Positions 4,642-48,279 of a stretch of DNA of 63,312 nt are shown here, piece after piece (the first letter of the stretch is position 1; each line of letters begins with the position of its first letter). The stretch lies in the NCBI GenBank assembly GCA_018817005.1, contig JAHIUF010000015.1, positions 1-63,312 of the forward strand. Reading direction: 5' to 3'. Both the position numbers and the translations under genes were made by a program. The notes beneath the pieces are model-generated. The model had not been told where the DNA came from, made no database searches, and worked only from the letters and a program-made list of their open reading frames with translations. This DNA is from Nanobdellota archaeon (lineage in GTDB: Archaea; Nanobdellota; Nanobdellia; Woesearchaeales; GCA-2686295).

Positions 4642-5718
4642 TTATTTTTTTCTTCCTGCATTAATGAATACTTGATAGTTTGTTTTATTACTTCTATAAG
4701 CACTCATGTTTGAGAAAAATTCTAAAGGATTATCTGTCAAGTAATCATAAAAATTTGAGTCAAACAAGAAAAAGTTTGAGTCTCTTATCTTGTTTTTTAC
4801 TTTAACCATCCCTTTGTAAACTGCTTTTAATGCGTCTGCACTGCATTCTACCATCTTGTTTAGTTTCTCTGTATTTGCAGCTTCAAGCTCTCGTGCGTTT
4901 TGTTCTTTTATACTTTCAATTGTTTCTTGGCTTATTGTTTTTTCCAGTCCTTTGTATGTGTATTTGATGTCTTCTTCTGATTTTTTATCTGGCAAGTCTA
5001 TGTTTTCAACAAGTTTTTTGTTTGCATCCTTGTCTCCTTGCTGGTTTTCATATTGAGTTATGAGCTTTGCAAGCTTTTGTCTTTTAAAGTAGCCTATTAC
5101 TTCATTGACAGGTTCCATCAACAATTCGTAAGAATTAGCTGTTTTTGTTGATGGTTTTACTGTTTTTGCTTCTGCTTTTCTGTAGGCTTTTGTTTCTTTT
5201 ACTTGTGCATATACTTCTTCTGCTGAGAGTTTTCTTATTTGTCCCATAACTTCATACACTATGACTTCTTTTCCAGATGGATATTTTTCTTTTGCAATAA
5301 CTGCAATGTCACTTGTGCCATCATATTTTTTGTCGAGCAGTTTTATTGCTTCTTCAAGAATTTCTGGTTTTTTGACTTTTTTGATTTTAGAAACATATTT
5401 TCCTTTTTGTACTTCATCAACAATTGTTTTGAATTCCTGAAGATTTGAGTCTAAGGTTTTATAATTTACCTGTATTTTTCCTTGTTCTTCCTTTACTTCA
5501 TCAACATTTTTTGTTAATCCATCAACGTTCTTGGTCAGTCCATCGATTGTTTGGTTTGTATTATTGAATTTTAAGTTAAAATCTTCTTGTACTTTTTCTA
5601 AATCTGCTGCTTGAGAAGTATATTTTGATCTGATTTCATCAATTGCTTGTGTAAATCTTTTGTTCGAAATTGGTATATATTGTTTAATCCAGTTTGTGAC
5701 TTTTTGTATGGTATTCAT
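4642..5718 (-). CDS. Hypothetical coiled-coil protein
   Basis: 358-aa ORF with GAGGTG RBS and a heptad tandem repeat DGLTKNV x2. Confidence 0.75.
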   Translation of the reverse strand: MNTIQKVTNWIKQYIPISNKRFTQAIDEIRSKYTSQAADLEKVQEDFNLKFNNTNQTIDGLTKNVDGLTKNVDEVKEEQGKIQVNYKTLDSNLQEFKTIVDEVQKGKYVSKIKKVKKPEILEEAIKLLDKKYDGTSDIAVIAKEKYPSGKEVIVYEVMGQIRKLSAEEVYAQVKETKAYRKAEAKTVKPSTKTANSYELLMEPVNEVIGYFKRQKLAKLITQYENQQGDKDANKKLVENIDLPDKKSEEDIKYTYKGLEKTISQETIESIKEQNARELEAANTEKLNKMVECSADALKAVYKGMVKVKNKIRDSNFFLFDSNFYDYLTDNPLEFFSNMSAYRSNKTNYQVFINAGRKK

Positions 5719-5803
5719 AGTAAAACACCTCTTTTGTTACTGTATAGTGATTAAAGTTTATAAAGTTTTCGGTTTTATGATAAAAAATCTCCGAAAAAAA
5801 CCC

Positions 5804-6601
5804 TCAAGACCTAAATCGCCCCTCATATTTTTTCTTTCGCTTCTCATCCTTCTTATCACGAGAAAAAACCAAATAATAATCTCTACGGCTCTCAAAATAA
5901 TATGAAAAGTTAAAAAAAACATCAAAAGAAGAAAACATGCAATTATAAAAATAAGGATCAAAAAGAAAGAAAGAGGACTCTTGAAACTTATCAGAAACGC
6001 CTTTGAAAAGGCCTCCAACAGAATCCAAGAACAATCGCGTATCAGACTTGTCCGCAAAAGAGTCATAAACAAGTCTCTGAGGCTTATTAATTTGAAAGTA
6101 TGTTTTCTTCAAATCACAGTTATTAAACCTGTAAACAAGACTAGAAATAGCCTGAGGAGATGCATTAATAGAGTAATCCTTCTTTCTTGTCAAATAAAAC
6201 GATTTAAAAGTGTGAGACAACAATTTTTTCTTATTCAAAAGCTCCAAACTATTAGAATAAGCAGATGCAATTTTCATAGTCTTTAAAAGAGCATAAGAAG
6301 TTTCTTTAGCCTGCTTCAGATTAACCGAAACAATGTGTTTATTCTTATCAAAAGCCACTTGCTCCAACATAGAATCATAATTAGATAAATTATCTTTAAA
6401 AATAAAAGAAAACTGTTTCTCATCAAATTTTACATAAGGCTTTTCCATAACATAAAGCAATCTTGCAAGCCTCTGACCTGAAAGATTCAAAACACTCTGA
6501 TCTTTAGACAAAGTATGGAATAAAGCAGTCAAACCCCTTTCTATGCCAAAAACCAAATCATCCAAAGATTGTTGTTCTACCTTTCTAAAAATAAATATCA
6601 C
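5804..6601 (-). CDS. Hypothetical protein
   Basis: 265-aa ORF, longest in the region; no recognised motif. Confidence 0.55.
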   Translation of the reverse strand: MIFIFRKVEQQSLDDLVFGIERGLTALFHTLSKDQSVLNLSGQRLARLLYVMEKPYVKFDEKQFSFIFKDNLSNYDSMLEQVAFDKNKHIVSVNLKQAKETSYALLKTMKIASAYSNSLELLNKKKLLSHTFKSFYLTRKKDYSINASPQAISSLVYRFNNCDLKKTYFQINKPQRLVYDSFADKSDTRLFLDSVGGLFKGVSDKFQESSFFLFDPYFYNCMFSSFDVFFNFSYYFESRRDYYLVFSRDKKDEKRKKKYEGRFRS

Positions 6602-6661
6602 CCATTAAAACAACGGAAATAGAAAAGTATTTATAAATATTAATCTAAATGATAAAAGTAA

Positions 6662-8098
6662 ATGATTAATCCCAACATAAGAAACAAAATAGTACATATT
6701 CTTGAACCAGAGTTTAACAAACAAACACAAAGAGGATTAAATAAATTTGCAGATGAGACAAATCAAAAATTTGAAAGAATAAAAAATCATTGGAGAAGAC
6801 CAATAACAAAAGCCTTATTATTCGCATTTGCTTTCAGTATCGGCAGTTCATCAGTATATGGAATGTCAAAAGAAACCAGAAACAATTGCAACGAACTGGT
6901 TAACGTCGCACACAAAATACAAAACGAATCAAATGTTTTTTTTGATTTACAAAGAAATTTACAAACAAATCCAACAACACAAAACAGCTTAAAACTTCAA
7001 GAATGCAAAAATAGATTAGCTGAATATTTAAAAGAGGCAAATCAACTAAAAAATGATATTTTTGATTCAATAAGAGCTGATGCTGTAGAACACATATTAA
7101 CAAACAATTTCTCACAAATAAAAGAAGATGCTGCACTTGTTAACTTGTATGCAAAACAAGATGGAGATGAAAAAATAATTGAAGAAGCAAGAAAATTAGA
7201 AACAGAACTGAAAGAATCAATAGAACAAGGAATCATCGTCAATAAAATTATAGAAGAAGCTAAACAACATGCTAAATTTGGTCGCGCCAAAGAAGCAAGG
7301 ATTGAAATGCAAAAAGCATTTAATATTCTTAAAAAACACGAATTTTTATTTAAAAAAGTTATCCATGGGTATTCAGAGGTATATTATATTCTTCTTGAAG
7401 ACGTTGATACCGCAGCAAGATTCGGTCGTTATGATGAAGCAAAAGCTGACGCAGAAGAATACTTAAAAGCCATAAAATCAATGGGTGTTCCAAAGGAAGC
7501 GAAAGAAGAACTTGAACAAATTTTAAAACAAGGACTTTCAATTATCGTCCAACACATACTTAATGATGCAGAGAGTAATGCAATCACACACAATAAGTTT
7601 GATGAAGCATATGTCTTGATTCTCAAAGCAAAAAGAGATTTCGAAGATATAAAGGCTGATTCCATAATTAGTATAACTGAAAAAAAAGTAGCCGAAAGCA
7701 TGTGTAAAGAAGCCATGAATAAGAGTAAGATTCATAAAAAATTTGAGGAGGGACTAAAACTTATTCAAACCGCAAAGGAAAGATATCCTGATCAAAAAGA
7801 AGTTATTCAGCATTACAGTTATAAATTTGGAATAGTTATTCTTTCAGAAGTAAAGGACCTTACAATAAAAAAGCATTTTAATCAAGCATTAGATATGCTT
7901 GAATATTATGAGAAACATCATTTCAAAGGTCCTATGAAAAGCATGAGAAAAACCATGGCCAATTACATTATGGAACTTGCTAAGATGTCTAGTAGTCCAA
8001 GGGAAGCTCAAAATCTTATTAAAATTGCCAAGGACATCGAGGAGGGACGATCTTTAGGTAATAATCTGTGGAACTGGTTAAAAGTTAATTTCTCATAA
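6662..8098 (+). CDS. Alpha-helical repeat (TPR-like) protein with one N-proximal TM segment
   Basis: TM ALLFAFAFSIGSSSVYG; repeated units AKFGRAKEA / ARFGRYDEA / NKFDEA / KKFEEG. Confidence 0.7.
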   Translation: MINPNIRNKIVHILEPEFNKQTQRGLNKFADETNQKFERIKNHWRRPITKALLFAFAFSIGSSSVYGMSKETRNNCNELVNVAHKIQNESNVFFDLQRNLQTNPTTQNSLKLQECKNRLAEYLKEANQLKNDIFDSIRADAVEHILTNNFSQIKEDAALVNLYAKQDGDEKIIEEARKLETELKESIEQGIIVNKIIEEAKQHAKFGRAKEARIEMQKAFNILKKHEFLFKKVIHGYSEVYYILLEDVDTAARFGRYDEAKADAEEYLKAIKSMGVPKEAKEELEQILKQGLSIIVQHILNDAESNAITHNKFDEAYVLILKAKRDFEDIKADSIISITEKKVAESMCKEAMNKSKIHKKFEEGLKLIQTAKERYPDQKEVIQHYSYKFGIVILSEVKDLTIKKHFNQALDMLEYYEKHHFKGPMKSMRKTMANYIMELAKMSSSPREAQNLIKIAKDIEEGRSLGNNLWNWLKVNFS

Positions 8099-8160
8099 AA
8101 AACCACTTCTGAATAATTCAATTTTTGCTTAAAAGTTTTAGATATTAAAAAAACAAATTT

Positions 8161-8222
8161 ATTGTTTAACCAATATATTGCTAAACCAATTAATTGTATA
8201 AACAACATATAGTTTATACAAT
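8161..8222. repeat. Tandem array of 4 palindromic units ATWG-N6-CAAY, 16-bp period
   Basis: Units at 8161 ATTGtttaacCAAT, 8177 ATTGctaaacCAAT, 8193 ATTGtataaaCAAC, 8209 ATAGtttataCAAT; overlaps a perfect 15-8-15 inverted repeat at 8189-8226. Confidence 0.8.
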
Positions 8223-8290
8223 TAATAAAACAAAAAAAGTGGTTTTAAAAGATTTAATTTTTGATTAAAATTTTTAAAAAAAATAAAAAC

Positions 8291-9097
8291 CTACAATTGA
8301 TCCAAAGGACTCTTTACTTTGCGTTTTTCAGCATTAGAAACATGGGTATAAATCTGTGTTGTCTGAAGATTAGCGTGACCTAAAAGATCCTGAATAACCC
8401 TGATATCAGTGCCATTTTCAAGAAGATGAGTTGCAAAACTATGTCTTAAAGTATGAGGTGTAACCACCTTTGAAATACCCGCACGCTTCGCCGCAAGAGA
8501 CACAATTTTTTGCACATTTCTCGTCGATAAATTGCCATTTCTACCATTAAATAATAAATCCTCTGAACGATTTTTTAAATATTTATAAATGTCTTTTACA
8601 ACCAAATCAGACAAAATAACTAATCTATCTTTAGCACCTTTTCCACCACGAACCCATGCACTTTTTGACTCCAACTCAAGATCAGAAACCCTAAGACCTA
8701 CCAGCTCTGAAACACGCATTCCTGATGAATAAAGAAGCTTAATTATAAGCACAGTTTTTTTTGAACCAGCACCACATATTAGCCTCTTTATTTCCTCTCT
8801 TGTAAGTACAACCGGTAATTTCTGAGCGATTTTTGGAGTTTTAATATTAACAATATTCATCTTTAGAATCTCATCATAATAAAACTTTAAAGCAGATTTC
8901 ACTAATGCAAGTGTTGCGTTAGAAACTTTCTTCTCAGATAAAAGATAAGATAAAAAAGACTTGATGTCATCCTCAGAAACTAAGTCTGCAGGTTTAGAAC
9001 AAAAGTTTATGAACTGCTTATTATAATAAAGATAAGATTCAACAGTTCTTGGGCTAAAACCTCTTAGTTTTAACTCAACATCAAGCTTTTTAAGCAT
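8291..9097 (-). CDS. xerA: Tyrosine recombinase XerA (XerC/D family)
   Basis: All catalytic motifs present: LYSSGMRVSEL (R), GKGAKDR (K), HTLRHSFATHLL (HxxR), LLGH and QIYTHV (Y); N-terminal SAM-like domain; adjacent dif site. Confidence 0.9.
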   Translation of the reverse strand: MLKKLDVELKLRGFSPRTVESYLYYNKQFINFCSKPADLVSEDDIKSFLSYLLSEKKVSNATLALVKSALKFYYDEILKMNIVNIKTPKIAQKLPVVLTREEIKRLICGAGSKKTVLIIKLLYSSGMRVSELVGLRVSDLELESKSAWVRGGKGAKDRLVILSDLVVKDIYKYLKNRSEDLLFNGRNGNLSTRNVQKIVSLAAKRAGISKVVTPHTLRHSFATHLLENGTDIRVIQDLLGHANLQTTQIYTHVSNAEKRKVKSPLDQL

Positions 9098-9107
9098 CTT
9101 ACCTCAC

Positions 9108-9356
9108 TTACTCTAAAAAATGATGCGAAAAGAAATGATGCCTTGCAATTTTATATGCTTGAAGCAACAACAACAAACCTGCAATTGCTAAAAGCGCATT
9201 TGCAATTATGTTTGGAACTGTTATTTCATAAGAAAGCATTCCAAACTCATTTAATAGGTTTGATCCGCCAAGTACAAGACAGACAAGTCCTACTAAAACT
9301 TCTTTTCCTACTGTTGAGCCACCTGATTTACGGGCTTTACTTTTCTTTTCAGACAT
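9108..9356 (-). CDS. Small two-TM membrane protein upstream of xerA
   Basis: MSEKK start after AGGTGA RBS; two hydrophobic helices; stop 10 bp before the xerA start. Confidence 0.7.
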   Translation of the reverse strand: MSEKKSKARKSGGSTVGKEVLVGLVCLVLGGSNLLNEFGMLSYEITVPNIIANALLAIAGLLLLLQAYKIARHHFFSHHFLE

Positions 9357-9391
9357 TTTATCACCTTTTTGCATTTATTTTAACCGTGAAA

Positions 9392-9419
9392 AGTTCGTAT
9401 AATATACATTATACGAACT
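9392..9419. other. dif: dif-type Xer recombination site
   Basis: AGTTCGTATAA-TATACA-TTATACGAACT is a perfect 11-6-11 inverted repeat. On the minus strand the spacer TGTATA is the same as in E. coli dif. About 300 bp from xerA. Confidence 0.88.
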
Positions 9420-9557
9420 TCACCTATTTAAAACTTTTGTTTATCGACGAGAAAACACTTAGAAGAGGTTATTTCAATAAAAAAGACGGGGTTTTAAAGA
9501 AAGAAAGAGGATATTTGAGAAAAAAATATCTTTAAATGAAAAATAATATTACCATCA

Positions 9558-10085
9558 GTGATTATAATGAGATTTTGGAAAATATCTAAACAAAAGGATT
9601 CAACATCAAAAACAATTGAAGATTTAGTAATAGAAACAACACTTAATCAAATAAAGATGTATAACAACCCTAATTACAAATCCTCAACAAAATATGATTA
9701 TATGAACATGCTCCACAATTACTGTGTAGGTCATCTAACAACAGAAGAAATATCTTTAACAATAAAGATAAATACACTTGCAGACAATATATCTTCAGCA
9801 ATTATTCAAGGTCGTAATAAATCCAAAAAGATAATGAGATTAGGAGATCTAAGCCTTATTGCAGGCATATTTACATTTCCAATAAACCCCTATATAGCTA
9901 TTGGGTTAGCAGTCACCTCTGCAGCCATTTATTATACTTCAAAAGTCACACACAGAAGAATTGTTAATAAACACTCTATGACGATTCCTGAAGAAATAAT
10001 GGATGATGAAAAGTTTTATGAAACTATTGACTCGATGAAACCAACCCTTCAAAAAATTCTTTTTGAGTCAAAAATGTATAATTAA
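9558..10085 (+). CDS. Hypothetical membrane protein
   Basis: Hydrophobic hairpin LSLIAGIFTFPINPYIAIGLAVTSAAIYY. Confidence 0.65.
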   Translation: MIIMRFWKISKQKDSTSKTIEDLVIETTLNQIKMYNNPNYKSSTKYDYMNMLHNYCVGHLTTEEISLTIKINTLADNISSAIIQGRNKSKKIMRLGDLSLIAGIFTFPINPYIAIGLAVTSAAIYYTSKVTHRRIVNKHSMTIPEEIMDDEKFYETIDSMKPTLQKILFESKMYN

Positions 10086-10115
10086 AATTTTTAAGCAAAA
10101 ATTAAAATTTTTAAT

Positions 10116-10520
10116 TCAATTTCTTTTTATTAGATGTTTTAAACCATAGAAGTAATCACTAAAAAGCTCATATAATATTTCTAACTCTCCCTCGCCAATC
10201 TCTGTTAAAAAATAGTTTTTCTTTCGCCCATCACGTTTGTACTTAACGAGTTTTTTGTTTCTAAGTTTTTTTAGAGCTGGATAAATGGTGCCGGGTGTTA
10301 AAATAACACCCTTTCTAGCACCCACCTTTTTCGCCAAGTCCTCACCACACAACCTCTTTTGTTTGAGTTCATGTAGTATGAGAAAGCTTAAGAAACCTTT
10401 GAGTTGAAGATACTCCGATTCTCTGCGTGTTTTTGTCTTCAGTTTTTTGTCACTGCTTGTTTGGTTCCTACTTTGTTTCTGTAATTTTTTGTTAGTCACT
10501 GTATCTGGCTTTCCCATCAA
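10116..10520 (-). CDS. PadR-family winged-helix DNA-binding protein with basic N-terminal tail
   Basis: KGFLSFLILHEL, CGEDL, PGTIYPALKKL and GRKKNYFLTEIG form the PadR signature. Confidence 0.88.
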   Translation of the reverse strand: MMGKPDTVTNKKLQKQSRNQTSSDKKLKTKTRRESEYLQLKGFLSFLILHELKQKRLCGEDLAKKVGARKGVILTPGTIYPALKKLRNKKLVKYKRDGRKKNYFLTEIGEGELEILYELFSDYFYGLKHLIKRN

Positions 10521-10550
10521 GTTAAATCTAGTTTCATCGTTTAAAAACTT

Positions 10551-10660
10551 ATTGGTTATAAAATATATAGTTTGTAAAATATATAGGTTAAACTATTGAT
10601 TGGATAAACTATTTATTGTTAGTACAATATATTGTAATAACAATTTATAGTATATACTAT
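10551..10660. repeat. Tandem array of 7 palindromic units ATWG-N6-(C/A)WAT, exact 16-bp period
   Basis: Units start at 10551, 10567, 10583, 10599, 10615, 10631 and 10647 (e.g. ATAGgttaaaCTAT, ATTGttagtaCAAT, ATAGtatataCTAT); directly upstream of the PadR gene. Confidence 0.85.
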
Positions 10661-10750
10661 ATTAATTAAAAAAAACTAAAAAAATAAATTTAAAACTAAT
10701 TTATTATTTTTATCCATAAAACTTAAAGAAAAAGTGAGCTTATATGATGC

Positions 10751-11287
10751 TTATATGGCTTCTTTTGAAACCAATCGTTGAGTTGCAGAACCATTAAGCT
10801 TCAAAATATTTTTTCGAGCCTGCAAATCTTTAAAGTTATACTCTAAAGAGAGATATTCATTATCAAAACTTCTTCTAACAACAGGTATCTTCTTAAAAAT
10901 TAGAGAATTTACATATCTTTCTACAAGTGCCTTTGTTAAACCTAATTTACGTGCGATCTCATCTACTGTTATTCCCTCATCCACAGAGTAGATTACAACA
11001 AAAACCTCCTCTTCTCTAGGAGAAAGGCTTATATTGTCAAAAGAATCATTATAAAAGTGAGGATTAACCTGCATTTGAAGATCATCAACTTTTTCCGAAA
11101 GCTTATCTACCTTTGCTTCCAATCTTAAAAGATACTCATAGTTTCCCTGTATCTCATTAGTATTCTGATTTATCGAGTCAAGATGCATATCTAAATCATC
11201 TTTTATTGCTTTAAAAACTGACTTTAAAGTATTCTTTATGTCAAAGATTTCTTTAGCAATATCTCTAACCTTTTTTACGCCTATAAT
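10751..11287 (-). CDS. Coiled-coil plus C-terminal wHTH protein; probable ATT/ATA start upstream of the tracked ATG
   Basis: LSPREEEVF and DEIARKLGLT HTH; frame open 33 codons upstream of 11188 to ATT/ATA, 6-9 nt after GGGGTGA. Confidence 0.7.
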   Translation of the reverse strand: MIGVKKVRDIAKEIFDIKNTLKSVFKAIKDDLDMHLDSINQNTNEIQGNYEYLLRLEAKVDKLSEKVDDLQMQVNPHFYNDSFDNISLSPREEEVFVVIYSVDEGITVDEIARKLGLTKALVERYVNSLIFKKIPVVRRSFDNEYLSLEYNFKDLQARKNILKLNGSATQRLVSKEAI

Positions 11288-11413
11288 GCTTAATCACCCC
11301 AATACAAAGTGAGAAAATGATAGTTTTTAAATATTATTATGCTCTAAATTATTATATTACAGGTTCCAATATTTATATGGATAAATATTCTTTTTTTTGA
11401 GAAAATAGTTGGT

Positions 11414-11980
11414 TTAGTTTTTTATTCGTGAGGCTGAACCTAAAATAAATTCTTCAACATTCTCACTTGATTTCAAAAGTTCATCATATTTTTCAGCAAT
11501 TCCCATCATTAAACTTGAAAATTTCTCTGAATCATCTTTAATCTTAACTTTTGAAAGCATATTTTTCGTTTCAGAATCTAACTCATTCACATTTTTTTCT
11601 TTGATAATCTTTGCTGTTGTTTTCAAATAATTACTAAAAGATTTCATTTCTTCATGCAGTTCATTTAGGGAAGGCCAGTCTTGGACATAATTTGTTAATC
11701 CTTCAAAAGTATTTTCTGCGTTAAAGGCCAAACCTCTTTGACAACCAGCGAATAAATAACCCATTTCATCTATTCTGTGATTATATTTTTCTACCAACTC
11801 AGAATATTTTTGACATATCGTCATGGATCTTTCTAAAAAATAAGGGTTGATTTTGCCAAAAAAGTTTACTAAAAGGCCTGATTTGTTCTCTAAAGATTCT
11901 AATCTTGTGTAAGGTATATTTATATACATTAATTCTTCATTAAGTCTTTCTATTAAAGACATATCTTTAGTTTCATTCAT
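11414..11980 (-). CDS. Hypothetical helical protein
   Basis: 188-aa ORF, third gene of a tightly spaced trio. Confidence 0.65.
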   Translation of the reverse strand: MNETKDMSLIERLNEELMYINIPYTRLESLENKSGLLVNFFGKINPYFLERSMTICQKYSELVEKYNHRIDEMGYLFAGCQRGLAFNAENTFEGLTNYVQDWPSLNELHEEMKSFSNYLKTTAKIIKEKNVNELDSETKNMLSKVKIKDDSEKFSSLMMGIAEKYDELLKSSENVEEFILGSASRIKN

Positions 11981-11989
11981 GGTTTATAA

Positions 11990-12409
11990 TTAATTTCTTT
12001 GTATATAAGCTTGTCGCATTATATCAAAGCTTTTATTTGATAAGTCTAGGTATTTGGTGGCATCTGCCATTTTATCAAAAAATTTTGAACTATTTGACAC
12101 TTGAATTGTTGATTTGTGTAGATCTTGCACTTTTCCTTCCAGATAGTTTCGTGAAAGTTCATTTAATTGGGCTATCTCTTTCTCTATTTCTAATCTTGCC
12201 TGTGAAAGATAGTTTTTTGCTTCATCAAGATAACCACTTGTTTTTTCCACATCATCATAGTTTATTGAAAATTTCAGGTTTTTGTTTAAATCATTCTTTT
12301 TTTCTGTGACTTCTTTTATCTGAAATTCTAGCATTCTCCATGTTTCTTGTAGTGCTTTTACAGATACTGTGAAGAGTGAATAATCAAGTGAGTCTTTTGG
12401 TTTTTTCAT
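11990..12409 (-). CDS. Hypothetical coiled-coil protein
   Basis: ATGA overlap with the upstream ORF. Confidence 0.65.
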   Translation of the reverse strand: MKKPKDSLDYSLFTVSVKALQETWRMLEFQIKEVTEKKNDLNKNLKFSINYDDVEKTSGYLDEAKNYLSQARLEIEKEIAQLNELSRNYLEGKVQDLHKSTIQVSNSSKFFDKMADATKYLDLSNKSFDIMRQAYIQRN

Positions 12410-12726
12410 TGTATATTTTTTTGTTGATTGTATAAGGTTTTTGCATAATTATTTGTTTGGTGTATTGCATTATCTACTTTTGTTTCTGCAAACAATATTG
12501 AGTTTAAATCATGAAGTGTTTTTGTAAATTCTTCTGCAAACTTTTTAACATCATTCATTGTTTTAGTTGCAAAGTCTATTTCATCAGCACTATATAATGG
12601 ATTTAATGGCTTCTCGAAAAATAATCTTGGTATTATAGGTCTTGTCATTGCCCCAATAACTGCCGTCGAAGCTAAGGCAAATATCTTATTGTATTCGATT
12701 ATTTTGTTTTTAATCATAGTTTTCAC
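12406..12726 (-). CDS. Hypothetical protein with N-terminal hydrophobic segment (start probably 12717)
   Basis: GAGGTGA RBS before MIKNK; segment IFALASTAVIGAM. Confidence 0.6.
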   Translation of the reverse strand: MKTMIKNKIIEYNKIFALASTAVIGAMTRPIIPRLFFEKPLNPLYSADEIDFATKTMNDVKKFAEEFTKTLHDLNSILFAETKVDNAIHQTNNYAKTLYNQQKNIQ

Positions 12727-12842: not shown

Positions 12843-13454
12843 ATGAGTAAAAAAGAATTGGCAGTAAGGCTTTCAAAACTAAAAACCTTTGAAAACCCAA
12901 ACGTTATGATGGAACAATACCCAACAGACTCCGAAATAGCTGCCGAAGTATTATGGTTTGCAATGCTTAAAGGAGACATTGAAGGAAAAATCATTGCTGA
13001 CTTTGGAGCAGGAACAGGAACACTTGGTATTGGAAGTCTACTTTTAGGAACAAAAAAAGTGTTTTTTATAGAAAAAGACGAAAAAGCAGTCCAAATATTA
13101 CAAGAAAACCTGGATTTTGAAGAGATTTCAGAAGAAAAATATGTACTCATAAAGAAAGATTTAGAATTTTTTCAAGAAAAAACTGATGTTGTTATTCAAA
13201 ACCCGCCATTTGGAACAAAAGAAAAACACGCTGATTCTGACTTCTTAAAAAAAGCTATGCTTACAGCACCAGTTATCTACACGTTTCACAAGACTGAAAC
13301 TGAAAAGTTCATACAAGAAAAAGCCAACTCAAATAGTTTCATTTGCACAAACAAGTTTGAATTCAACTTTCCAATAAAAAAAATCATGGAGCATCATAAA
13401 AAAAGAATTGAACACATAAAAGTCACTTGTTTTAGATTTGAAAAAGACAACTAA
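12843..13454 (+). CDS. METTL5-like predicted RNA N6-adenine methyltransferase (COG2263)
   Basis: EQYPT, DFGAGTG and QNPPFGT (NPPF) motifs. Confidence 0.88.
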   Translation: MSKKELAVRLSKLKTFENPNVMMEQYPTDSEIAAEVLWFAMLKGDIEGKIIADFGAGTGTLGIGSLLLGTKKVFFIEKDEKAVQILQENLDFEEISEEKYVLIKKDLEFFQEKTDVVIQNPPFGTKEKHADSDFLKKAMLTAPVIYTFHKTETEKFIQEKANSNSFICTNKFEFNFPIKKIMEHHKKRIEHIKVTCFRFEKDN

Positions 13455-40982: not shown

Positions 40983-41066
40983 GCCTCTGTGGCTTAGTGG
41001 TATAGCGCGTGCTTGGTAAACATTCCAGACAGCACGAGGTCGCGAGTTCAATTCTCGCCAGAGGCT
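40983..41066 (+). tRNA. trnT: tRNA-Thr(GGT) with 12-nt intron (41019-41030); integration target
   Basis: GCCTCTG/CAGAGGC, CGTGC/GCACG, TT-GGT-A|A and GCGAG-TTCAATT-CTCGC; BHB helix TTGG/CCAG. Confidence 0.93.
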
Positions 41067-41164
41067 TATATGTTTTGGTAGATGTTTGTTCTTATTTAGA
41101 GGTTTAAAAGTGAGTCTAAGAACGTATGTTAAAGGCTTACCTTTATATTTCCCCTAAAAAGTGA

Positions 41165-41350
41165 TTAGTTTTTTGTCGTTGGGTGGTCTCCTATTTTTCT
41201 GTTGTGCTTATATGCTTTTAGTACTCCTATAAATCCTAATTCTTTAAATTTGTCGTTTATTCCTGCAGATAATTCGTCCCATTCGATTGTGTTGGGTTTA
41301 TAGCTTGTTTGTTTGTCTTTTTTAAGTTTTTCTATATTTATTATATTCAT
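41165..41350 (-). CDS. Small hypothetical protein (element)
   Basis: Start MNIIN after AAGGAG in the repeated leader. Confidence 0.6.
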   Translation of the reverse strand: MNIINIEKLKKDKQTSYKPNTIEWDELSAGINDKFKELGFIGVLKAYKHNRKIGDHPTTKN

Positions 41351-41446
41351 TTTATTTTTCTCCTTTGTTAAATCTTTGTTTAACATCTTTTTTTTATTCT
41401 AATTTTTTTAACTTTATTTTTCTCCTTTGTTAAAATCTTTGTTGTT

Positions 41447-41719
41447 TTAACAAATTTTTATTTGTTTTTCTTCTTCTTGTTTTTCTTCTTCTTGTATTTC
41501 TTCTGGTTTCGTTACTTGTCTTGCAATAAATTCTAGTGTTGTTTTCATTTCATAAAATTCGGCTTTTATTTTACTTAGTTCAATTATTGAGTCTCTGTAA
41601 ACTTCAACAAGTCGGTTTAATTCTGTTCCTGCTTTTATGAGTTTATTTATTGTTTTTACAAATTGTTTAAAGGCTGTTTTATCTTCTACTTCTTGGTAGT
41701 CGTTAATTTTTGTTATCAT
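41447..41719 (-). CDS. Small coiled-coil protein (element)
   Basis: ATGA-coupled to the upstream ORF. Confidence 0.65.
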   Translation of the reverse strand: MITKINDYQEVEDKTAFKQFVKTINKLIKAGTELNRLVEVYRDSIIELSKIKAEFYEMKTTLEFIARQVTKPEEIQEEEKQEEEKQIKIC

Positions 41720-41907
41720 TTGCTTTTATGGATTATTTTTCTTAAGTATTCAAAATCTTCTTCTGCTTCTGTGATGAATCTGCATAGTAAAATAATTAAT
41801 TTTTTATCTTCGCTAATTTTTTTGTAAAGGTTTTTTGTTTCTTGTATGTGTTTTTCTGTGTTTGTTAGTGCTTTTAGTTGTTGTTGTTTATTTTTGTTAT
41901 TTTTCAT
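41716..41907 (-). CDS. Small helical protein (element)
   Basis: Start MKNNK after the repeated leader. Confidence 0.6.
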   Translation of the reverse strand: MKNNKNKQQQLKALTNTEKHIQETKNLYKKISEDKKLIILLCRFITEAEEDFEYLRKIIHKSK

Positions 41908-42008
41908 TTTGTTTTTCTCCTTTGTTAAATCTTTGTTTAACATCTTTTTTTTATTTCAAATTTTAATATTATTTTTTTTTATCACCTTTTTTCTTTGTAT
42001 CTTTTCTG

Positions 42009-42234
42009 AAGTTCCTGACTTGGTTAGCTCATTTTTTGGCTAACCAATCATGAACTTTTTAAAAATCCTTTTTTTCGGCAGTTGCAAACTGCTTTACTAT
42101 CTTTTTCAAAGAAATGACTGGTTTTGCTCTTTCAAATTGTTTTTTATCAATCGGTATTTTTGAATAAGAAGCAAGGCTTCATCATCTCAAAAATAAAAAG
42201 CTTTATCTTGTCGGAATCAGCTTGTCTGGTTCTG
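42009..42234 (+). other. Non-coding multi-hairpin region (candidate single-strand origin or ncRNA)
   Basis: Hairpins at 42009-42057, 42078-42092, 42168-42180 and 42212-42234; G-T pairs favour folding of the plus strand. Confidence 0.5.
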
Positions 42235-42484
42235 AAAGAATAAAACTTTTAGATACACTTTAGAAAAAACAATCTTTTCAAGAATTATCCATTTTCATGT
42301 TATTTTTTTTCCCTTTAAAATTTGAAATTAATTTTTTTGTTTTTTGCTGTTTTTCTTTATTTTTTTGGTTCTTTGCTGTTTTTTGTTTTTTGCTGTTTTT
42401 CCTTATTTTTTTGTTTTTTTTCTTTTTTTTGTCGTCTTTATTTTATGATTTATTAGTTTTTTATTATATATGTTGTGTTACCAT

Positions 42485-42560
42485 AATCTTTATATACTTT
42501 GAAAGTTATACTTTTATTTAAGTTAGAATTTTCTTTAAAAAACGAAAGATTTATATAGTC
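42485..42560. promoter_or_regulatory. Divergent TATA/BRE promoters of the element
   Basis: Plus-strand CGAAAGATTTATATA at 42543-42557; minus-strand AAAGTATATAAAG near 42488-42500. Confidence 0.55.
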
Positions 42561-42658
42561 CTTTCCATATTAGAATGTGTAGATAATCGTTTATCGTGGA
42601 TGGTTTTTGTAGTTTTTACATATGATTAACGATTTGAGGTATAAGAAAATGTTGTTTT

Positions 42659-42841
42659 GTGTTTTGGGTGTTGCAAGTGAGTGATTGGATTACTATAACT
42701 TTTCCTAATTATTTTAGGGCTTTGTTTGATGATATTAAAGCTGAGAGAAAGGATTTAGTTTCTGAAAGGTTAATAACTCAAGAAGCTGTTAGGTTTTTTT
42801 GGCGTGTTAATTGTGAATCTAAGAAGTCTAAAAGAAGATGA
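42659..42841 (+). CDS. Small putative ribbon-helix-helix protein
   Basis: WITITFP (strand) followed by two short helices (FRALFDDIKAE, SERLITQEAVRFFW). Confidence 0.45.
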   Translation: MFWVLQVSDWITITFPNYFRALFDDIKAERKDLVSERLITQEAVRFFWRVNCESKKSKRR

Positions 42842-42962
42842 GTTTTTTTGTTTTTTTTAAATCTTTTTTTTCTAATTCTATTTTTAAATCTAATTTTTTT
42901 AAATCTTTTTTTTCTTTTTTAGTTTTTTTGTCCTCGTTGGTGTTTGTGCATTGTTTAAAATT

Positions 42963-43026
42963 TAAGCCACTCGATAGTGGCTTACTATTAAACAAGAGTC
43001 ACCGGTGTTCGAATCGCGAAGCGATT
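42963..43026 (+). other. Candidate double-strand origin (dso) of rolling-circle replication
   Basis: Hairpin TAAGCCACT-CGAT-AGTGGCTTA; CCACTCGATA resembles phiX174 CAACTTG/ATA; palindrome CACCGGTG; hairpin AATCGC-GAA-GCGATT. Confidence 0.7.
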
Positions 43027-43063
43027 GACTTAATGCACCATGAAATTAGAGGGGGTGTTTTAA

Positions 43064-43279
43064 ATGGCTGTTAAGAGAAAGATTGGTAATGTTTTTATTA
43101 TCGCTTATGATTTGTTTGGTAAAAAGGTTTTTTCTTCAAAAATAACTTCTTTTAATTTTAATTGCTTGAGGTATCTAGCAATTCGTGATAAAATATCTAT
43201 TGATAAAGTTTTATCTCGTCTTATTTTATTTAATAAGAAGTTTGAAACTAAATCTAAAGTTTCTGAGGTTTCTAAATGA
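43064..43279 (+). CDS. Small basic protein, RHH/CopG-like, coupled to rep
   Basis: GGGGTG RBS; LRYLAIRDKISIDKVLSRLI; ATGA overlap with rep. Confidence 0.55.
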   Translation: MAVKRKIGNVFIIAYDLFGKKVFSSKITSFNFNCLRYLAIRDKISIDKVLSRLILFNKKFETKSKVSEVSK

Positions 43280-44577
43280 CTTTTCAAAAATCTGTTTATA
43301 AGCATTTCTTAGAAAATATTAGTTTGGTAAGTTTTGGTTTTGAAGTTTCAAATTATAATTATGTTTACAAAACTCCTTTTACTGAATCTCCTTATAGTAA
43401 TACTTTAAATGGTAATATTAATAATATTAATAATAATATTAGTGAAACTCCTTTACTTGTTCAAATAGGAATAACTCTTCCAGAGGTTAATCATTTAAAT
43501 TTTTTGTCTGCTTTAAGGAGTTTTGGTTATTTTAAAACTGATTATACTTTTAATAAATCCGTTGGTTGTTTTAAAGGTGAGTTGGGTGCTTCTGGCTTGG
43601 TTGTAGATTATGGTTGTCACGCTGTCGATTTGCCTGATAGGTGTGGGCAGTTGTTTTGTCCTAAGTGTTCTAAGTTGTATCGTTATAAGACTAAAAAGAG
43701 GGTTGTTGAAAAGGTTTTGTCTATGAGAAATCCTCGTTTTCTTACTTTTAGTGGTTCTAATGTTTCTGAGTTATCTAAAGAGTATTTTCAGAATAATTCT
43801 AAGATTTGGAATCGTTTTAAAACTGATGTAAATAAAGATTTCGGGTGTGTTTTTCAAGATTATGTGAATGTTATTGAAGTAAAGTTTCATGCTAAGGGTT
43901 CTAATAAGTATGATAAAAATGGTTCTGTGATTGGTGTTTATGATTCTAATAGTTGGAATATTCATAACCATATAATTTATGATGGTAAATACTTAGATTT
44001 CCATACTGCAAGAAACTACTTGTTAAAGGCTTCTAAAGGTCGTTATAAAGCTATTTGGTTTGAAAAGGCTAATAATGTTCAAGATAAGGTTAAGAGTGCT
44101 GGTTACATTTCTAAGTATCTTTTAAAGGCTTCTGGTTTTGGTGGTGATGTTCAGGCTATGGCTCAGTTTTATTTTCATACTAAAAATATGAGAATGGTCA
44201 CTTTTGGTCGTTCTAAAGATGTTTATGTTCCGTCTTTAGAAGAAGCTTTGCAGTTTCCTCAGACTCGTTCTTTATTCACTTGTCCATTATGTAATAAAAA
44301 AGTTAGTTCTGTAACTTTAAGTTTTGTTCGTGTTAAGGATAGAGATAATAATTATAAGGATTATGATTCACCAATATACATTGGTGTTATTGAAGATTCT
44401 TCTCAGCGTTTATTGAATGGTTCTGATGAAGTTTTACGTTTTATTGAATCTCAAAAGGGTGTTATGAATAATGCTTTAGAGATAGAAAAATTGTTTGGTG
44501 TAGATGTTATTAACGATTTAAAATCTAAAGGGTTTATTTATGAGTCTAAGATTAATTATTTAGAGGTTTTAAAGTGA
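43276..44577 (+). CDS. rep: HUH rolling-circle replication initiator with Zn-finger and C-terminal wHTH
   Basis: CGQLFCPKC Zn motif; motif I FLTFS; motif II WNIHNHIIY; motif III YISKYLLK; CPLC. Confidence 0.88.
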   Translation: MTFQKSVYKHFLENISLVSFGFEVSNYNYVYKTPFTESPYSNTLNGNINNINNNISETPLLVQIGITLPEVNHLNFLSALRSFGYFKTDYTFNKSVGCFKGELGASGLVVDYGCHAVDLPDRCGQLFCPKCSKLYRYKTKKRVVEKVLSMRNPRFLTFSGSNVSELSKEYFQNNSKIWNRFKTDVNKDFGCVFQDYVNVIEVKFHAKGSNKYDKNGSVIGVYDSNSWNIHNHIIYDGKYLDFHTARNYLLKASKGRYKAIWFEKANNVQDKVKSAGYISKYLLKASGFGGDVQAMAQFYFHTKNMRMVTFGRSKDVYVPSLEEALQFPQTRSLFTCPLCNKKVSSVTLSFVRVKDRDNNYKDYDSPIYIGVIEDSSQRLLNGSDEVLRFIESQKGVMNNALEIEKLFGVDVINDLKSKGFIYESKINYLEVLK

Positions 44578-44867
44578 AATCTATTTCTAAACAATTTCAA
44601 AAGAATGGTTTAAATCTTAAATTACTTGAAAGAGTTGGTAGTGTTGTGTTATTTAAGCTTTTTAATGATGAGGGGTGCGTATATGGTTATGAAGTTCATA
44701 AACTACGCTTAAAATCATATCCCTATGGTAAATTTAACGAATCTGGGGTTATGATTAGAGTAACTAAACTTTGTTTAGCAAGTAATGAAGAATTTGGTCG
44801 TTTTGCTTGGTCTTATGATAATTTTATTTCTGCAAGTAGTAAATTTAATGAATTATTAGAGGTTTAA
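44574..44867 (+). CDS. Hypothetical protein (element)
   Basis: GTGA overlap with rep; YEV and SNEEFGRFAWSY. Confidence 0.65.
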   Translation: MKSISKQFQKNGLNLKLLERVGSVVLFKLFNDEGCVYGYEVHKLRLKSYPYGKFNESGVMIRVTKLCLASNEEFGRFAWSYDNFISASSKFNELLEV

Positions 44868-44869
44868 AG

Positions 44870-45067
44870 TTGGTTCTTAATTACTATGTCGCTTTTAAAG
44901 TTTCGTTATTAGATAGAGAGTTAATAAATGAGTTTGTTGGTGATAAACCTATATCTGAAGTTATTAGAAATATTGTTATGCAAAGAGTAAAACAAGGTTC
45001 TCATATTCAGGATTATTTAGAAAGTATTAATAAACAATTATTTGAAATTAAAGCTAAATTGGTTTAA
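44870..45067 (+). CDS. Small RHH-like protein
   Basis: YVAFKVS..DRELINEF..KPISEVIRNIV. Confidence 0.55.
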   Translation: MVLNYYVAFKVSLLDRELINEFVGDKPISEVIRNIVMQRVKQGSHIQDYLESINKQLFEIKAKLV

Positions 45068-45112
45068 CATTGTTTTACTTTATTTATAAAGGGTGGTTAC
45101 CTATTTTACTGT

Positions 45113-45211
45113 ATGAATTTAGATTTTAATACTATGTTGTTGTTAGCTATACTCTTTATTCTACTCTTTTTTGGTAGTCAATTCTTAAATTTTCTGAGGC
45201 GTTTCATATGA
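45113..45211 (+). CDS. 32-aa single-TM peptide (not in ORF track)
   Basis: MNLDFNTMLLLAILFILLFFGSQFLNFLRRFI*; TTTATAAA box upstream; ATGA overlap with the next ORF. Confidence 0.65.
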   Translation: MNLDFNTMLLLAILFILLFFGSQFLNFLRRFI

Positions 45212-46044
45212 ATAAAAATTATTTAATTATTTTAGGTGTTATCGCTTTAATATTTTTGGGTTTATCAAATGGTTTTTTAAGTAATTCTTTAACTTTTTTA
45301 AAAGAATTTTCTGATAGAGATTCAGCTAATCAATATTTAGATAGTATTAAATCTCAAGGTTATATTAATACGGCTGTTCGTTGTAGTTATGGTTCTGATA
45401 ACAAGGTGAGTAGTTGCAAAGTTTATGGTGAAATATCCTCTGATTCTAATGAAATTTCTAAATCTAATGTTTTAACTGCTTTTGTTGTTTCTAATAGTGT
45501 TTGTGTTGAGAAAAAGTATAGTAGTTCAGAGTGGCGTTTAGATATTATTGAGAAGTCTTTAAATACCAATGTTGATGGTTGTTTTAAGGGTATTAATGTT
45601 GATGGCTGGATTTGGAAATCTAAGAGTTCTTGTGTTGAATGTTTAGTTCGTGTAAATAATAATTTGAATCCTTATACTCGTTATGTTGTAGATTATTCTT
45701 CTGTTGAGCCTGTTTGTGTTGCTGATAGTAATGGTTATTATACTCTTAAAGATTGTTTGGATATTGTTAAACCTGATTTAAAGGTTTGTGGTGGCGTTGA
45801 GAGTGAATGTGTTTATCCTAATGGTGTTAGTAATGCTTTTAGGGTTTGTGAAGATGGTGGTTTAAAAGAGGGTTATTGTGCTGATGGACAATATTGTTAT
45901 GAATCTTCTGATGTCGTTGCTTCTTGCAAGGGTGAGGGTGGTTCTGATGAAGTTCCTGATAGTGTTAAATTTGCAGTTTCTGGTTTTTTAATAGCTGGGA
46001 TTCTTTTAGTTGTTTGGTATCTTTTTAAGAGGGGTAAATTATAA
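45208..46044 (+). CDS. Cys-rich membrane protein with N-terminal hydrophobic segment and C-terminal TM anchor (spike/adhesin-like)
   Basis: 14 Cys in the ectodomain; C-terminal FAVSGFLIAGILLVVWYLFKRGKL. Confidence 0.75.
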   Translation: MNKNYLIILGVIALIFLGLSNGFLSNSLTFLKEFSDRDSANQYLDSIKSQGYINTAVRCSYGSDNKVSSCKVYGEISSDSNEISKSNVLTAFVVSNSVCVEKKYSSSEWRLDIIEKSLNTNVDGCFKGINVDGWIWKSKSSCVECLVRVNNNLNPYTRYVVDYSSVEPVCVADSNGYYTLKDCLDIVKPDLKVCGGVESECVYPNGVSNAFRVCEDGGLKEGYCADGQYCYESSDVVASCKGEGGSDEVPDSVKFAVSGFLIAGILLVVWYLFKRGKL

Positions 46045-46045
46045 A

Positions 46046-46375
46046 ATGTATTTTGTTCAGATTATGAAAAAGTTTTTACCTTATATTGTTTTATTGTTTT
46101 TGGTGTTGTTGTTGTTTAATTATGTTGCTAACAATTTTTTTCAAAGTTATGATGAAAAAGTTGAGGATAAGGCTTATTTTAAATTATTTGGTATGCGTGT
46201 TTTTCCTAAATTTTTTGTTGAGTATGGTGATGTTAAATCTTATCGTGGTGATTATGAGGATTTATGTAAATGGTATATGCTTAAATGTAGTTGGAATTAT
46301 GAGAATAAGCCTTTAGATAATTGGGCTTTAAATAAAGATGGTTGTCGTCAAGAGGGTGACTGGATTGTTTGTTAA
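46046..46375 (+). CDS. Small N-anchored membrane protein with 4 Cys
   Basis: FLPYIVLLFLVLLLF; C-terminal CKW, CSW, CRQ and terminal C. Confidence 0.65.
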   Translation: MYFVQIMKKFLPYIVLLFLVLLLFNYVANNFFQSYDEKVEDKAYFKLFGMRVFPKFFVEYGDVKSYRGDYEDLCKWYMLKCSWNYENKPLDNWALNKDGCRQEGDWIVC

Positions 46376-46406
46376 TGTTCATACTTTTTTCATGCGAAGA
46401 AAGGCT

Positions 46407-46465
46407 GGTTTTTACAGGATTTTGAAAAACTTTTACCCCCTTTCGTTTTTTCACCTGTAAAAACC
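46407..46465. other. Long intergenic hairpin
   Basis: GGTTTTTACAGG/CCTGTAAAAACC 12-bp perfect stem plus inner TGAAAAA/TTTTTCA. Confidence 0.7.
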
Positions 46466-46484
46466 TTATTTAATTTTTGTTAAA

Positions 46485-46733
46485 ATGGTTATTAAGATTT
46501 GTAAGAGTAAGAATAATAAGAATTATTTTTTATATCAGAATAAGCCTTTTTTTATTAATGAATCACCTCGTAATTTAACTCATAATCCTAAGGGTTATGA
46601 TTATTTTATAAGTAATTGTTCTTCTTATGGTGTTTGGTTTAAAAGTGGTTATATTGATGGTTTTGAGGTTTATTTATTTGGTGAATTATTTGGTGTAATT
46701 AATTCTGATGGTGATATTGAAGTTTCTGAATAA
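46485..46733 (+). CDS. Small aromatic-rich hypothetical protein (element)
   Basis: 82-aa ORF with the element's T-ending codon bias. Confidence 0.55.
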   Translation: MVIKICKSKNNKNYFLYQNKPFFINESPRNLTHNPKGYDYFISNCSSYGVWFKSGYIDGFEVYLFGELFGVINSDGDIEVSE

Positions 46734-46782
46734 TTTTTTTAGTAGAAATTTGGTTTAATTAATTTTTTTTATTAATTAGATT

Positions 46783-48039: not shown

Positions 48040-48279
48040 ATAAGCTTGATAAATTCTGATTTATTTAAATGTTTTGGTAACATCTACTATATTGAGTATT
48101 CTCGCCAGAGGCTTGCAAAGCAAGACGAGAAGGCGAGGCCCAAAAACAAAAAAGTTTTTGACTGTCTCGCCAGAAGCTTACCGCTCTTTTGGTTGGTTTT
48201 TAAAGATATATTTAGAAATCATCGAATCAGACTCAGAAATTCTTATTACCGGTTGGATATTTTTAAGTTAATAATATAT

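Follow-up and report, generated by a model that had tools for sequence, protein, structure and literature searches.

The xerA–dif locus and its two palindrome arrays

We analyzed the xerA–dif locus of a Nanobdellota archaeon of the order Woesearchaeales, which lies on contig JAHIUF010000015.1 (63,312 nucleotides; this whole stretch is called the window below) of assembly GCA_018817005.1 (G000; 1,659,209 bases in 91 contigs, 31% G+C). The locus holds the gene for the tyrosine recombinase XerA, the recombination site dif, a small membrane protein gene (mem88) and a gene for a PadR-type winged-helix protein, and this set is enclosed by two tandem arrays of a 16-bp palindromic unit, ATWG-N6-CWAT (table 1). 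An initial annotation of this DNA had placed a four-unit array on the left and a seven-unit array on the right at an exact 16-bp period, and our reading of the register confirmed both: three of the four units of the distal (left) array are perfect, the third having a CAAC end, and five of the seven units of the proximal (right) array are perfect, units 1 and 2 having an AAAT end. The array centres lie 1214 and 1200 bp from the centre of dif, in agreement with the distances first calculated. As had also been described, the left array is situated between the convergent ends of an open reading frame (ORF; 6662–8098, +) and xerA (−), and the right array adjoins a PadR gene whose product has a basic tail.

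Both arrays are unique in this genome. The strict motif occurred 286 times in the assembly, and its chains at 16 bp were found solely at 8161 and 10583; thus, tandem arrangements of the motif are not common genome-wide. With a position weight matrix (PWM), chains of at least two units were again confined to the two window arrays (4 and 7 units), a result that is partly circular because the matrix was derived from these 11 units; in five Markov-simulated genomes the PWM returned 0, 0, 0, 0 and 1 chains, the longest having 2 units. An independent repeat search recovered the arrays as a direct-repeat family (D1) and, over 68 nt, as inverted copies of one another (I1), and Tandem Repeats Finder detected the left array and missed the right one.

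The product of xerA matched the XerA equivalog profile NF040815 with 270.2 bits (cut-off 220) and PF00589 with E = 4e-44, and the next two tyrosine recombinases of the genome by score fell short of the NF040815 cut-off (214.5 and 199.7). Residues R128, H215, R218, H241 and Y250, which we take to be the catalytic-type residues of XerA, are invariant in 16 XerA orthologues. The dif palindrome is the only perfect 11-6-11 palindrome of its type in the genome, with a half-site score of 18/18 (15 for the next best site). It has the TAA-N6-TTA core given for archaeal dif sites, and by hand count 18 of its 28 positions equal those of the Thermococcus kodakarensis dif, as printed in PMC11840125. These results uphold the assignment of xerA and of a single dif to the locus. 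GC skew showed no clear switch at dif and was uninformative as a terminus marker.

In having an XerA equivalog above the cut-off and a unique 11-6-11 dif with the TAA-N6-TTA core, the locus resembles the archaeal XerA/dif systems of Pyrococcus, Sulfolobus and Thermoplasma, and dif is close to xerA, as reported for Sulfolobus. It differs from these systems in that dif separates a mem88-xerA operon from its TATA box, a small membrane protein gene stands just upstream of xerA, and the PadR arrays and two further motifs, termed B and C here, are present. In the consensus of 33 dif-anchored loci, dif was found 5–8 bp downstream of a canonical B-recognition element (BRE) and TATA box; thus, transcription of mem88-xerA should start inside dif, and this layout suggests that XerA may repress its own operon via dif.

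Table 1. Features of the xerA–dif locus, with positions in the window and strand
Feature	Position	Strand	Description
Motif B copy 1	8122–8141	−	Exact 20-mer, at the outer flank of the distal array
Distal (left) array	8161–8222	.	Four abutting 16-bp palindromic units ATWG-N6-CWAT, 69 bp past the xerA stop; counterpart conserved in relatives
Motif B copy 2	8258–8277	−	Three mismatches; past the xerA stop, at the inner flank of the distal array
xerA	8291–9097	−	Tyrosine recombinase; NF040815, PF00589
mem88	9108–9374	−	Predicted membrane protein of 88 amino acids with a basic N-terminus; 10 bp upstream of xerA, same strand
dif	9392–9419	.	Perfect 11-6-11 palindrome with TAA-N6-TTA core
mem88-xerA operon promoter	9425–9439	−	BRE-like CAAAAG and TATA box TTTTAAATA; ends 5 bp from dif
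Motif C	9440–9454	.	Palindrome TTTATCGACGAGAAA, adjoining the xerA-operon promoter and dif
Motif B copy 3	10082–10101	+	Two mismatches; just past the padR stop
padR	10116–10517	−	PadR subfamily-2 winged-helix protein with disordered basic N-terminal tail, proposed to bind the arrays; PF03551, alignment of 17 orthologues, structural model
padR TATA box	10540–10547	−	TTTTTAAA (− strand); the ATG follows after 30 nt
Proximal (right) array	10551–10660	.	Seven units, in register with the padR TATA box, 3 bp away

Co-occurrence of the arrays with a PadR protein

We addressed the phyletic distribution of the arrays in 61 genomes of the same order. A PadR orthologue (54–75% identity, E ≤ 6e-27) was present in 17 of them, and 9 of the 10 other genomes of the same family carried one. 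A pattern of two tandem units matched in 15 of the 17 genomes with the orthologue and in none of the 44 others, all matches being on the contig that bears padR and xerA, and the reversed pattern gave one match across the 61 genomes. Of the two orthologue genomes that lacked a strict match, one had an array in which a single unit is imperfect, and the second had one site together with a degenerate one. The arrays and the neighbouring PadR gene thus belong together, as the initial annotation had supposed, and of all results this co-occurrence speaks most strongly for the arrays being the probable cognate sites of PadR. On these comparative grounds, we consider it very likely that PadR binds the arrays, which we treat as its candidate sites.

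The unit itself was defined in 81 padR loci (the window and 80 loci of species representatives in GTDB; 802 kb in total), in which 86 arrays of 2–7 units, or 300 units altogether, were called. The ATWG and CWAT positions hold 0.9–1.95 bits of information and the N6 positions 0.3–0.66 bits. In addition, the bases flanking the 14-mer, which were not used in calling, were T and A in 83% of the 300 units; thus, the true unit is the full 16-bp palindrome T-ATWG-N6-CWAT-A, abutting its neighbours without a spacer.

PadR matched PF03551 with 38.4 bits (cut-off 27, E = 1.3e-9). Its structural model comprises three helices (residues 41–53, 58–69 and 75–87), two strands (91–96 and 99–104) and a further helix (106–126), that is, a winged helix with a single long C-terminal helix as in short subfamily-2 PadR proteins; the predicted local distance difference test score was 90–96 over residues 41–110 and below 55 over residues 1–40, and 11 of the first 35 residues are lysine or arginine by hand count. 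The top seven Foldseek matches were all short PadR proteins (e.g., 4esb, 5h20, LmrR and BC4206), with template modelling scores of 0.73–0.80 normalised to the target. In the alignment of 17 orthologues, the core is nearly invariant; the tails at both termini differ in length and contain many K, R, T and Q residues, one orthologue having a long lysine-rich C-terminal tail. The invariant Y79, R98, K100 and Y102 and the motifs GTIYP and GRKK-Y align with GTMY and GRRKYY in the recognition helix and wing of the PadR structure 5dym, the alignment partner being 5dym and not the Bacillus subtilis protein (BsPadR). In the BsPadR report, DNA is contacted by a recognition-helix tyrosine and a basic residue of the wing (Tyr20, Tyr42 and Lys67), and the operator consists of two short inverted half-sites 6 bp apart (PMC5728393), a geometry that the unit described here shares.

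Compared with the PadR regulators of known function (B. subtilis PadR, LmrR and BC4206), the protein is alike in its PF03551 match above the cut-off, in the short-PadR fold and in having a candidate site at its own promoter, and it differs in four respects: there are 2–7 abutting sites at an exact 16-bp period rather than one or two operators, a second array is located 1.5–4.9 kb away across xerA–dif, the basic N- or C-terminal tails are long, and no detoxification or efflux gene is adjacent. The position of the padR TATA box fits the peak of TATA-like words that was observed genome-wide at −35 to −26 from start codons, and the proximal array is in register with this box, which suggests that PadR is autoregulated.

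The initial annotation had likened PadR to AspA, the centromere-binding protein of the Sulfolobus plasmid pNOB8, and a corresponding role at a chromosomal centromere-like segregation site has to be weighed. According to the AspA study, a palindrome upstream of the aspA gene is the nucleation site of that protein, which from there covers more than 200 bp as a continuous helix (PMC5120986), and it has been described as an unusual member of PadR subfamily 2 (PMC5728393). By analogy, the two would have in common a small PadR-type dimer of the same general fold class (for our protein, by the model), a candidate site upstream of its own gene and, plausibly, an extended filament. AspA, however, starts at one 23-bp palindrome and spreads non-specifically in that account (PMC5120986), whereas each position of the present arrays is predicted to be a specific site; moreover, no parB-parA pair follows padR, and the setting is a chromosomal xerA–dif locus. 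The family scan of the 10 proteins encoded within 4642–12409 revealed no ParA or ParB domain and thus no aspA-parB-parA cassette, and AspA was found neither among the 32 PDB sequence matches at E ≤ 0.01 nor among the Foldseek matches listed to rank 50. An AspA-like identity was therefore not sustained beyond membership in the generic subfamily 2, and a centromere role appears extremely improbable.

Arrangement of the arrays around xerA and dif, and its possible functions

The arrangement of the arrays was followed through the padR loci. The strict PWM caller found an array upstream of padR in 53 of the 80 loci from relatives; 26 loci that a separate, strict motif caller had scored as array-less at this position were inspected, and many of them have degenerate arrays that keep CCAAT half-sites at the 16-bp period and extend into the TATA box. 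The order xerA–dif–padR was widespread in Woesearchaeota, with xerA present in 54 of the 81 padR loci. Two separate arrays were found in 27 loci, and in 26 of these xerA stands between them, the remaining locus having a diverged recombinase in this place; dif is between the arrays in all 16 two-array loci in which dif was called and distances were measured. These results agree with the proposal that the two arrays flank the dif region. The distal array is mostly 50–200 bp past the xerA stop. The bracket was kept with an inverted xerA in three loci, L084 and L098 by the PWM caller and L048 (congener G001) by an earlier motif caller, the PWM caller having given only the distal array of L048; it was also kept in L058 despite 3.6 kb inserted between padR and xerA. 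In one further genome (G044), a single array was located between the xerA stop and the padR start. In the 16 measured loci, the arrays lie 576–2533 bp from dif, centre to centre, and 1.5–4.9 kb from each other, and the arm ratio about dif ranges from 0.62 to 2.10; the near-exact symmetry about dif, which the initial annotation had stressed, is thus particular to this genome.

The gene past the distal array varies by lineage, being the convergent ORF in the window, a coiled-coil/helix-turn-helix gene (ccHTH) elsewhere and small unrelated ORFs in others; therefore, the distal array is not the operator of one conserved neighbour, and this possibility was dropped. In the sister genus (L031, L033, L034 and L029), the distal array is followed by small variable genes that are preceded by a TTTTTAAA box and a GAGGTG ribosome-binding site, and upstream of these two elements there is a short GC-containing palindrome of the type CCGRAA...TTYCGG.

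The arrays are accompanied by motif B (CTAAAACTTTTAAGCAAAAA, extended by YTAAAWNTTTTA), a locus-specific AT-rich element of 20–32 nt with a TAAAA-N-TTTTA core and phased A/T tracts. In the window, extended copies 1 and 2 make up a direct repeat of 58 nt on either side of the distal array (D3: 8097–8154 and 8233–8290, 72%), and copies 2 and 3 form a 46-nt inverted repeat around xerA–dif (I2: 8232–8277 and 10082–10127, 80% complementary). The genome holds 10 matches at up to 3 mismatches, three of them at the locus; with so few matches, the notion of a general promoter or terminator of the genome was discarded. In the 61 genomes, 23 of 27 matches at up to 1 mismatch are on contigs with padR or xerA, and in the 80 related loci 60 of 140 matches are within 100 bp of an array, with preferred gaps of ~20 and ~34 bp, another frequent place being just past the padR stop. 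Motif B flanks dif-xerA in two PadR-less genomes as well, and its association is thus with xerA/dif and not with PadR. The core of the motif is similar to the BRE and TATA consensus of the organism (AAAAC followed by TTTATA or TTTAAA at −40 to −26); the argument that a simple promoter operator would make little sense at the left array is accordingly weakened, since promoter-like B elements flank that array. In some relatives (L102 100–330, L088 9560–9860, L064 8580–8820 and others), motif B is found in tandem near xerA, in 2–4 copies at a 45–46-bp period. A simple inversion between B elements was considered for the difference between G000 and G001 and was abandoned because the B orientations do not fit it. 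No locus variant or inversion joint was seen in the contigs of four DNA runs, in which rare variants cannot appear; three joints of low likeness in these contigs were short pieces, likely from other organisms.

We proposed a composite function, in which PadR would repress its own promoter via the proximal array and also occupy a distal operator or barrier, the two together enclosing the padR-dif-xerA cassette; we hold this to be slightly better than an even chance. In this scheme, each 16-bp unit would be the site of one PadR dimer, so that 2–7 dimers would bind side by side and cooperatively; neighbouring dimers, offset by about half a helical turn, would build a short nucleoprotein filament that the variable basic tails may help to retain on DNA. 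The filled proximal array, in phase with the padR BRE/TATA, would shut off padR by negative autoregulation. Two such filaments would bracket the padR-dif-(mem88)-xerA cassette beside the promoter-like B elements, and the distal array would act as a PadR-occupied operator or barrier controlling transcription into or out of the xerA–dif cassette; it may additionally be a physical boundary around dif.

The main rival is that PadR is an ordinary two-operator transcription factor, a repressor of the padR promoter and of one or two B-type promoters of non-coding or antisense transcripts near the 3' end of xerA, with no role in recombination or chromosome structure and with a bracket that merely reflects inherited gene order. 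It would account for the lineages with a padR-proximal array alone and for the promoter-like B elements at their fixed distances of ~20 and ~34 bp from the arrays, and the proximity of xerA, ccHTH and p203 is ancestral, being seen in PadR-less genomes too. However, the bracket outlasts the inversion of xerA and the 3.6-kb insertion, neither a conserved gene nor an Rfam RNA was found downstream of the distal array (a scan of 7800–11400 gave zero RNA families at E ≤ 1), the orientation of motif B is variable, and up to seven abutting sites with histone-like tails exceed the needs of a simple repressor. We regard this rival as somewhat unlikely. If PadR were only an autoregulator, the arrays would still be a clean natural example of abutting, phase-locked operators.

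Several observations weigh against the composite function as we proposed it. Among the 35 one-array loci, 25 have the padR-proximal array alone. Five genomes were examined in which xerA and padR are separated by more than 2 kb, the distance being 2.4 kb in one and exceeding the 6-kb flank in the other four, and the sole convincing array genome-wide was padR-proximal; this indicates that PadR does not strictly need a partner array on the dif side. Thus, the core function may be plain autoregulation, with the second array as a lineage-specific addition. In about seven loci (L056, L059, L064, L069, L071, L077 and L082), padR and xerA are convergent and the sole array separates them, the regions upstream of padR and beyond dif being array-free. 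In addition, the orientation of motif B relative to xerA and padR differs between lineages, and thus no single promoter or terminator model fits it. A strict link to dif is further disfavoured by nine loci with at least 4 kb on either side of padR and no full-length xerA, and by PadR-less relatives that have XerA orthologues with an adjacent dif and no arrays. Finally, the PWM and the motif callers were trained on the arrays themselves, and the related genomes are non-independent samples, so that the bracket could partly reflect inherited gene order.

A structural role has to be considered as well, namely that PadR filaments and intrinsically bent B elements form roadblocks to SMC loop extrusion, or paired loop anchors, that isolate dif. 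In favour of such a role are the conserved bracketing of xerA and dif, a gene for a full-length SMC in the genome (an open frame of 1179 amino acids), and basic tails and abutting sites that would suit a stiff filament. A 2025 study of TrmBL2 makes such a boundary more plausible: it describes an Smc boundary of T. kodakarensis that is formed by filaments of this winged-helix protein together with the DNA surrounding dif, and not by dif or XerA, and it mentions dif-proximal boundaries for several euryarchaea (PMC11840125). The present locus is alike in having a winged-helix protein, predicted to coat DNA, beside dif, in the presence of SMC in the genome, and in that the flanking DNA rather than dif itself would be the determinant. 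However, TrmBL2 is a genome-wide nucleoid protein, whereas PadR is of another family (the profile scans gave no TrmB-family match for PadR or ccHTH) and has one or two site clusters per genome; the T. kodakarensis boundary is described as being without a phenotype in the same study (PMC11840125); and many PadR genomes have one array, with PadR-less relatives keeping xerA–dif without arrays. Isolation of dif by roadblocks or anchors of this kind therefore seems quite improbable to us.

We give a little more credit, while still regarding it as unlikely, to the broader idea that the PadR filaments form a sequence-programmed boundary or loop enclosing dif and xerA, which would either stall SMC and RNA polymerase on both sides or pair so that XerA acts within one chromosome. 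The spatial, temporal and directional confinement of archaeal XerA/dif recombination is poorly understood, and such a boundary or loop, if real, would be a compact DPANN answer to the unsolved confinement of Xer recombination in archaea that lack FtsK control; the B elements would then be bends or decoy promoters, and dif within the promoter would provide XerA feedback on its own synthesis.

Accessory systems of Xer recombination offer a further comparison. At cer and psi, the accessory proteins are PepA, ArgR and ArcA, and the core site has its accessory DNA immediately to one side; the matS sites bound by MatP in Escherichia coli are single and scattered over hundreds of kilobases. The present locus resembles both in that extra DNA, here predicted to bind protein, is tied to an Xer site or to the dif region, and it differs in having two compact arrays 0.6–2.5 kb from dif on both sides. 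A corresponding accessory function, in which PadR on both arrays would loop or wrap the DNA so that XerA acts within one molecule or at a given time, would suit the finding that dif has an array to either side wherever dif and two arrays were called (16 loci), and the control of directionality of archaeal XerA is not known to be settled. The arrays, however, do not adjoin dif in any of the 16 loci, as accessory sites of the cer/psi type would, their spacing from dif is not conserved, and related genomes have xerA–dif without PadR. We therefore consider an accessory role very unlikely, and both the cer/psi-like and the centromere roles less likely than a boundary.

The layout around xerA and dif is conserved in many Woesearchaeota and points to an undescribed layer of control or insulation; no paper linking PadR with XerA/dif, or dealing with the XerA of Woesearchaeota, was found in a search of the literature accessible to us. 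With one small PadR and one or two site clusters per genome, the locus is a far simpler and more specific system than that of Thermococcus, and thus, although the organisms are uncultured, an in vitro study would require no more than PadR, XerA and a 2.5-kb DNA.

Motif C, adjoining genes and the remainder of the window

The palindrome of motif C, with the consensus TTCTCGTCGAGAA, was found within 120 bp of dif in 13 of the 38 loci with dif called, on either side and at offsets of 36 or 46–48 bp, and some xerA-less loci have it between the array and padR. A near-identical copy inside xerA (8517–8531) was rejected as a conserved site, being present only in G000 and its congener. With dif in the xerA promoter, the promoter-like motif B and this palindrome at a fixed distance from dif, a candidate map of cis-regulatory elements becomes available for a DPANN xerA locus for the first time. 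Counterparts of mem88 were observed in many loci at 34–51% identity, and the profile scans gave no family match for it; as a predicted membrane protein, mem88 could link XerA to the membrane or the division site.

The initial annotation had also counted the coiled-coil/winged-helix neighbour of padR as part of the module. This gene, ccHTH (10751–11188, −), has a weak similarity of the Lrs14/Sta1 type, is single-copy in 53 of the 61 genomes of the order, with or without PadR, and adjoins xerA even in PadR-less genomes. Because it is order-wide and stands beside xerA without PadR, ccHTH is not specific to the module, and a role as a specific partner of the arrays or of motif B was rejected. Together with a divergent methyltransferase-like gene (12843–13454, +), it belongs to the conserved neighbours of xerA across the order. 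The possibility that the locus is a mobile element carrying xerA was likewise rejected, since PadR-less relatives show the same xerA-ccHTH-p203 order.

Around the locus, runs of coiled-coil-rich ORFs without family matches were observed at 4642–8098 and 11414–12726, and a 478-residue ORF has a counterpart of 27% identity in the congener only. Farther along the window, a probable integrated element lies at ~41000–48100. Its features are a strong excursion of the GC skew, numerous T-rich tandem repeats (41.3–42.9 kb), an ORF of 418 residues of the phage-integrase family (46783–48039) and an ORF with a weak IS91 zinc-domain match beside a P-type ATPase.

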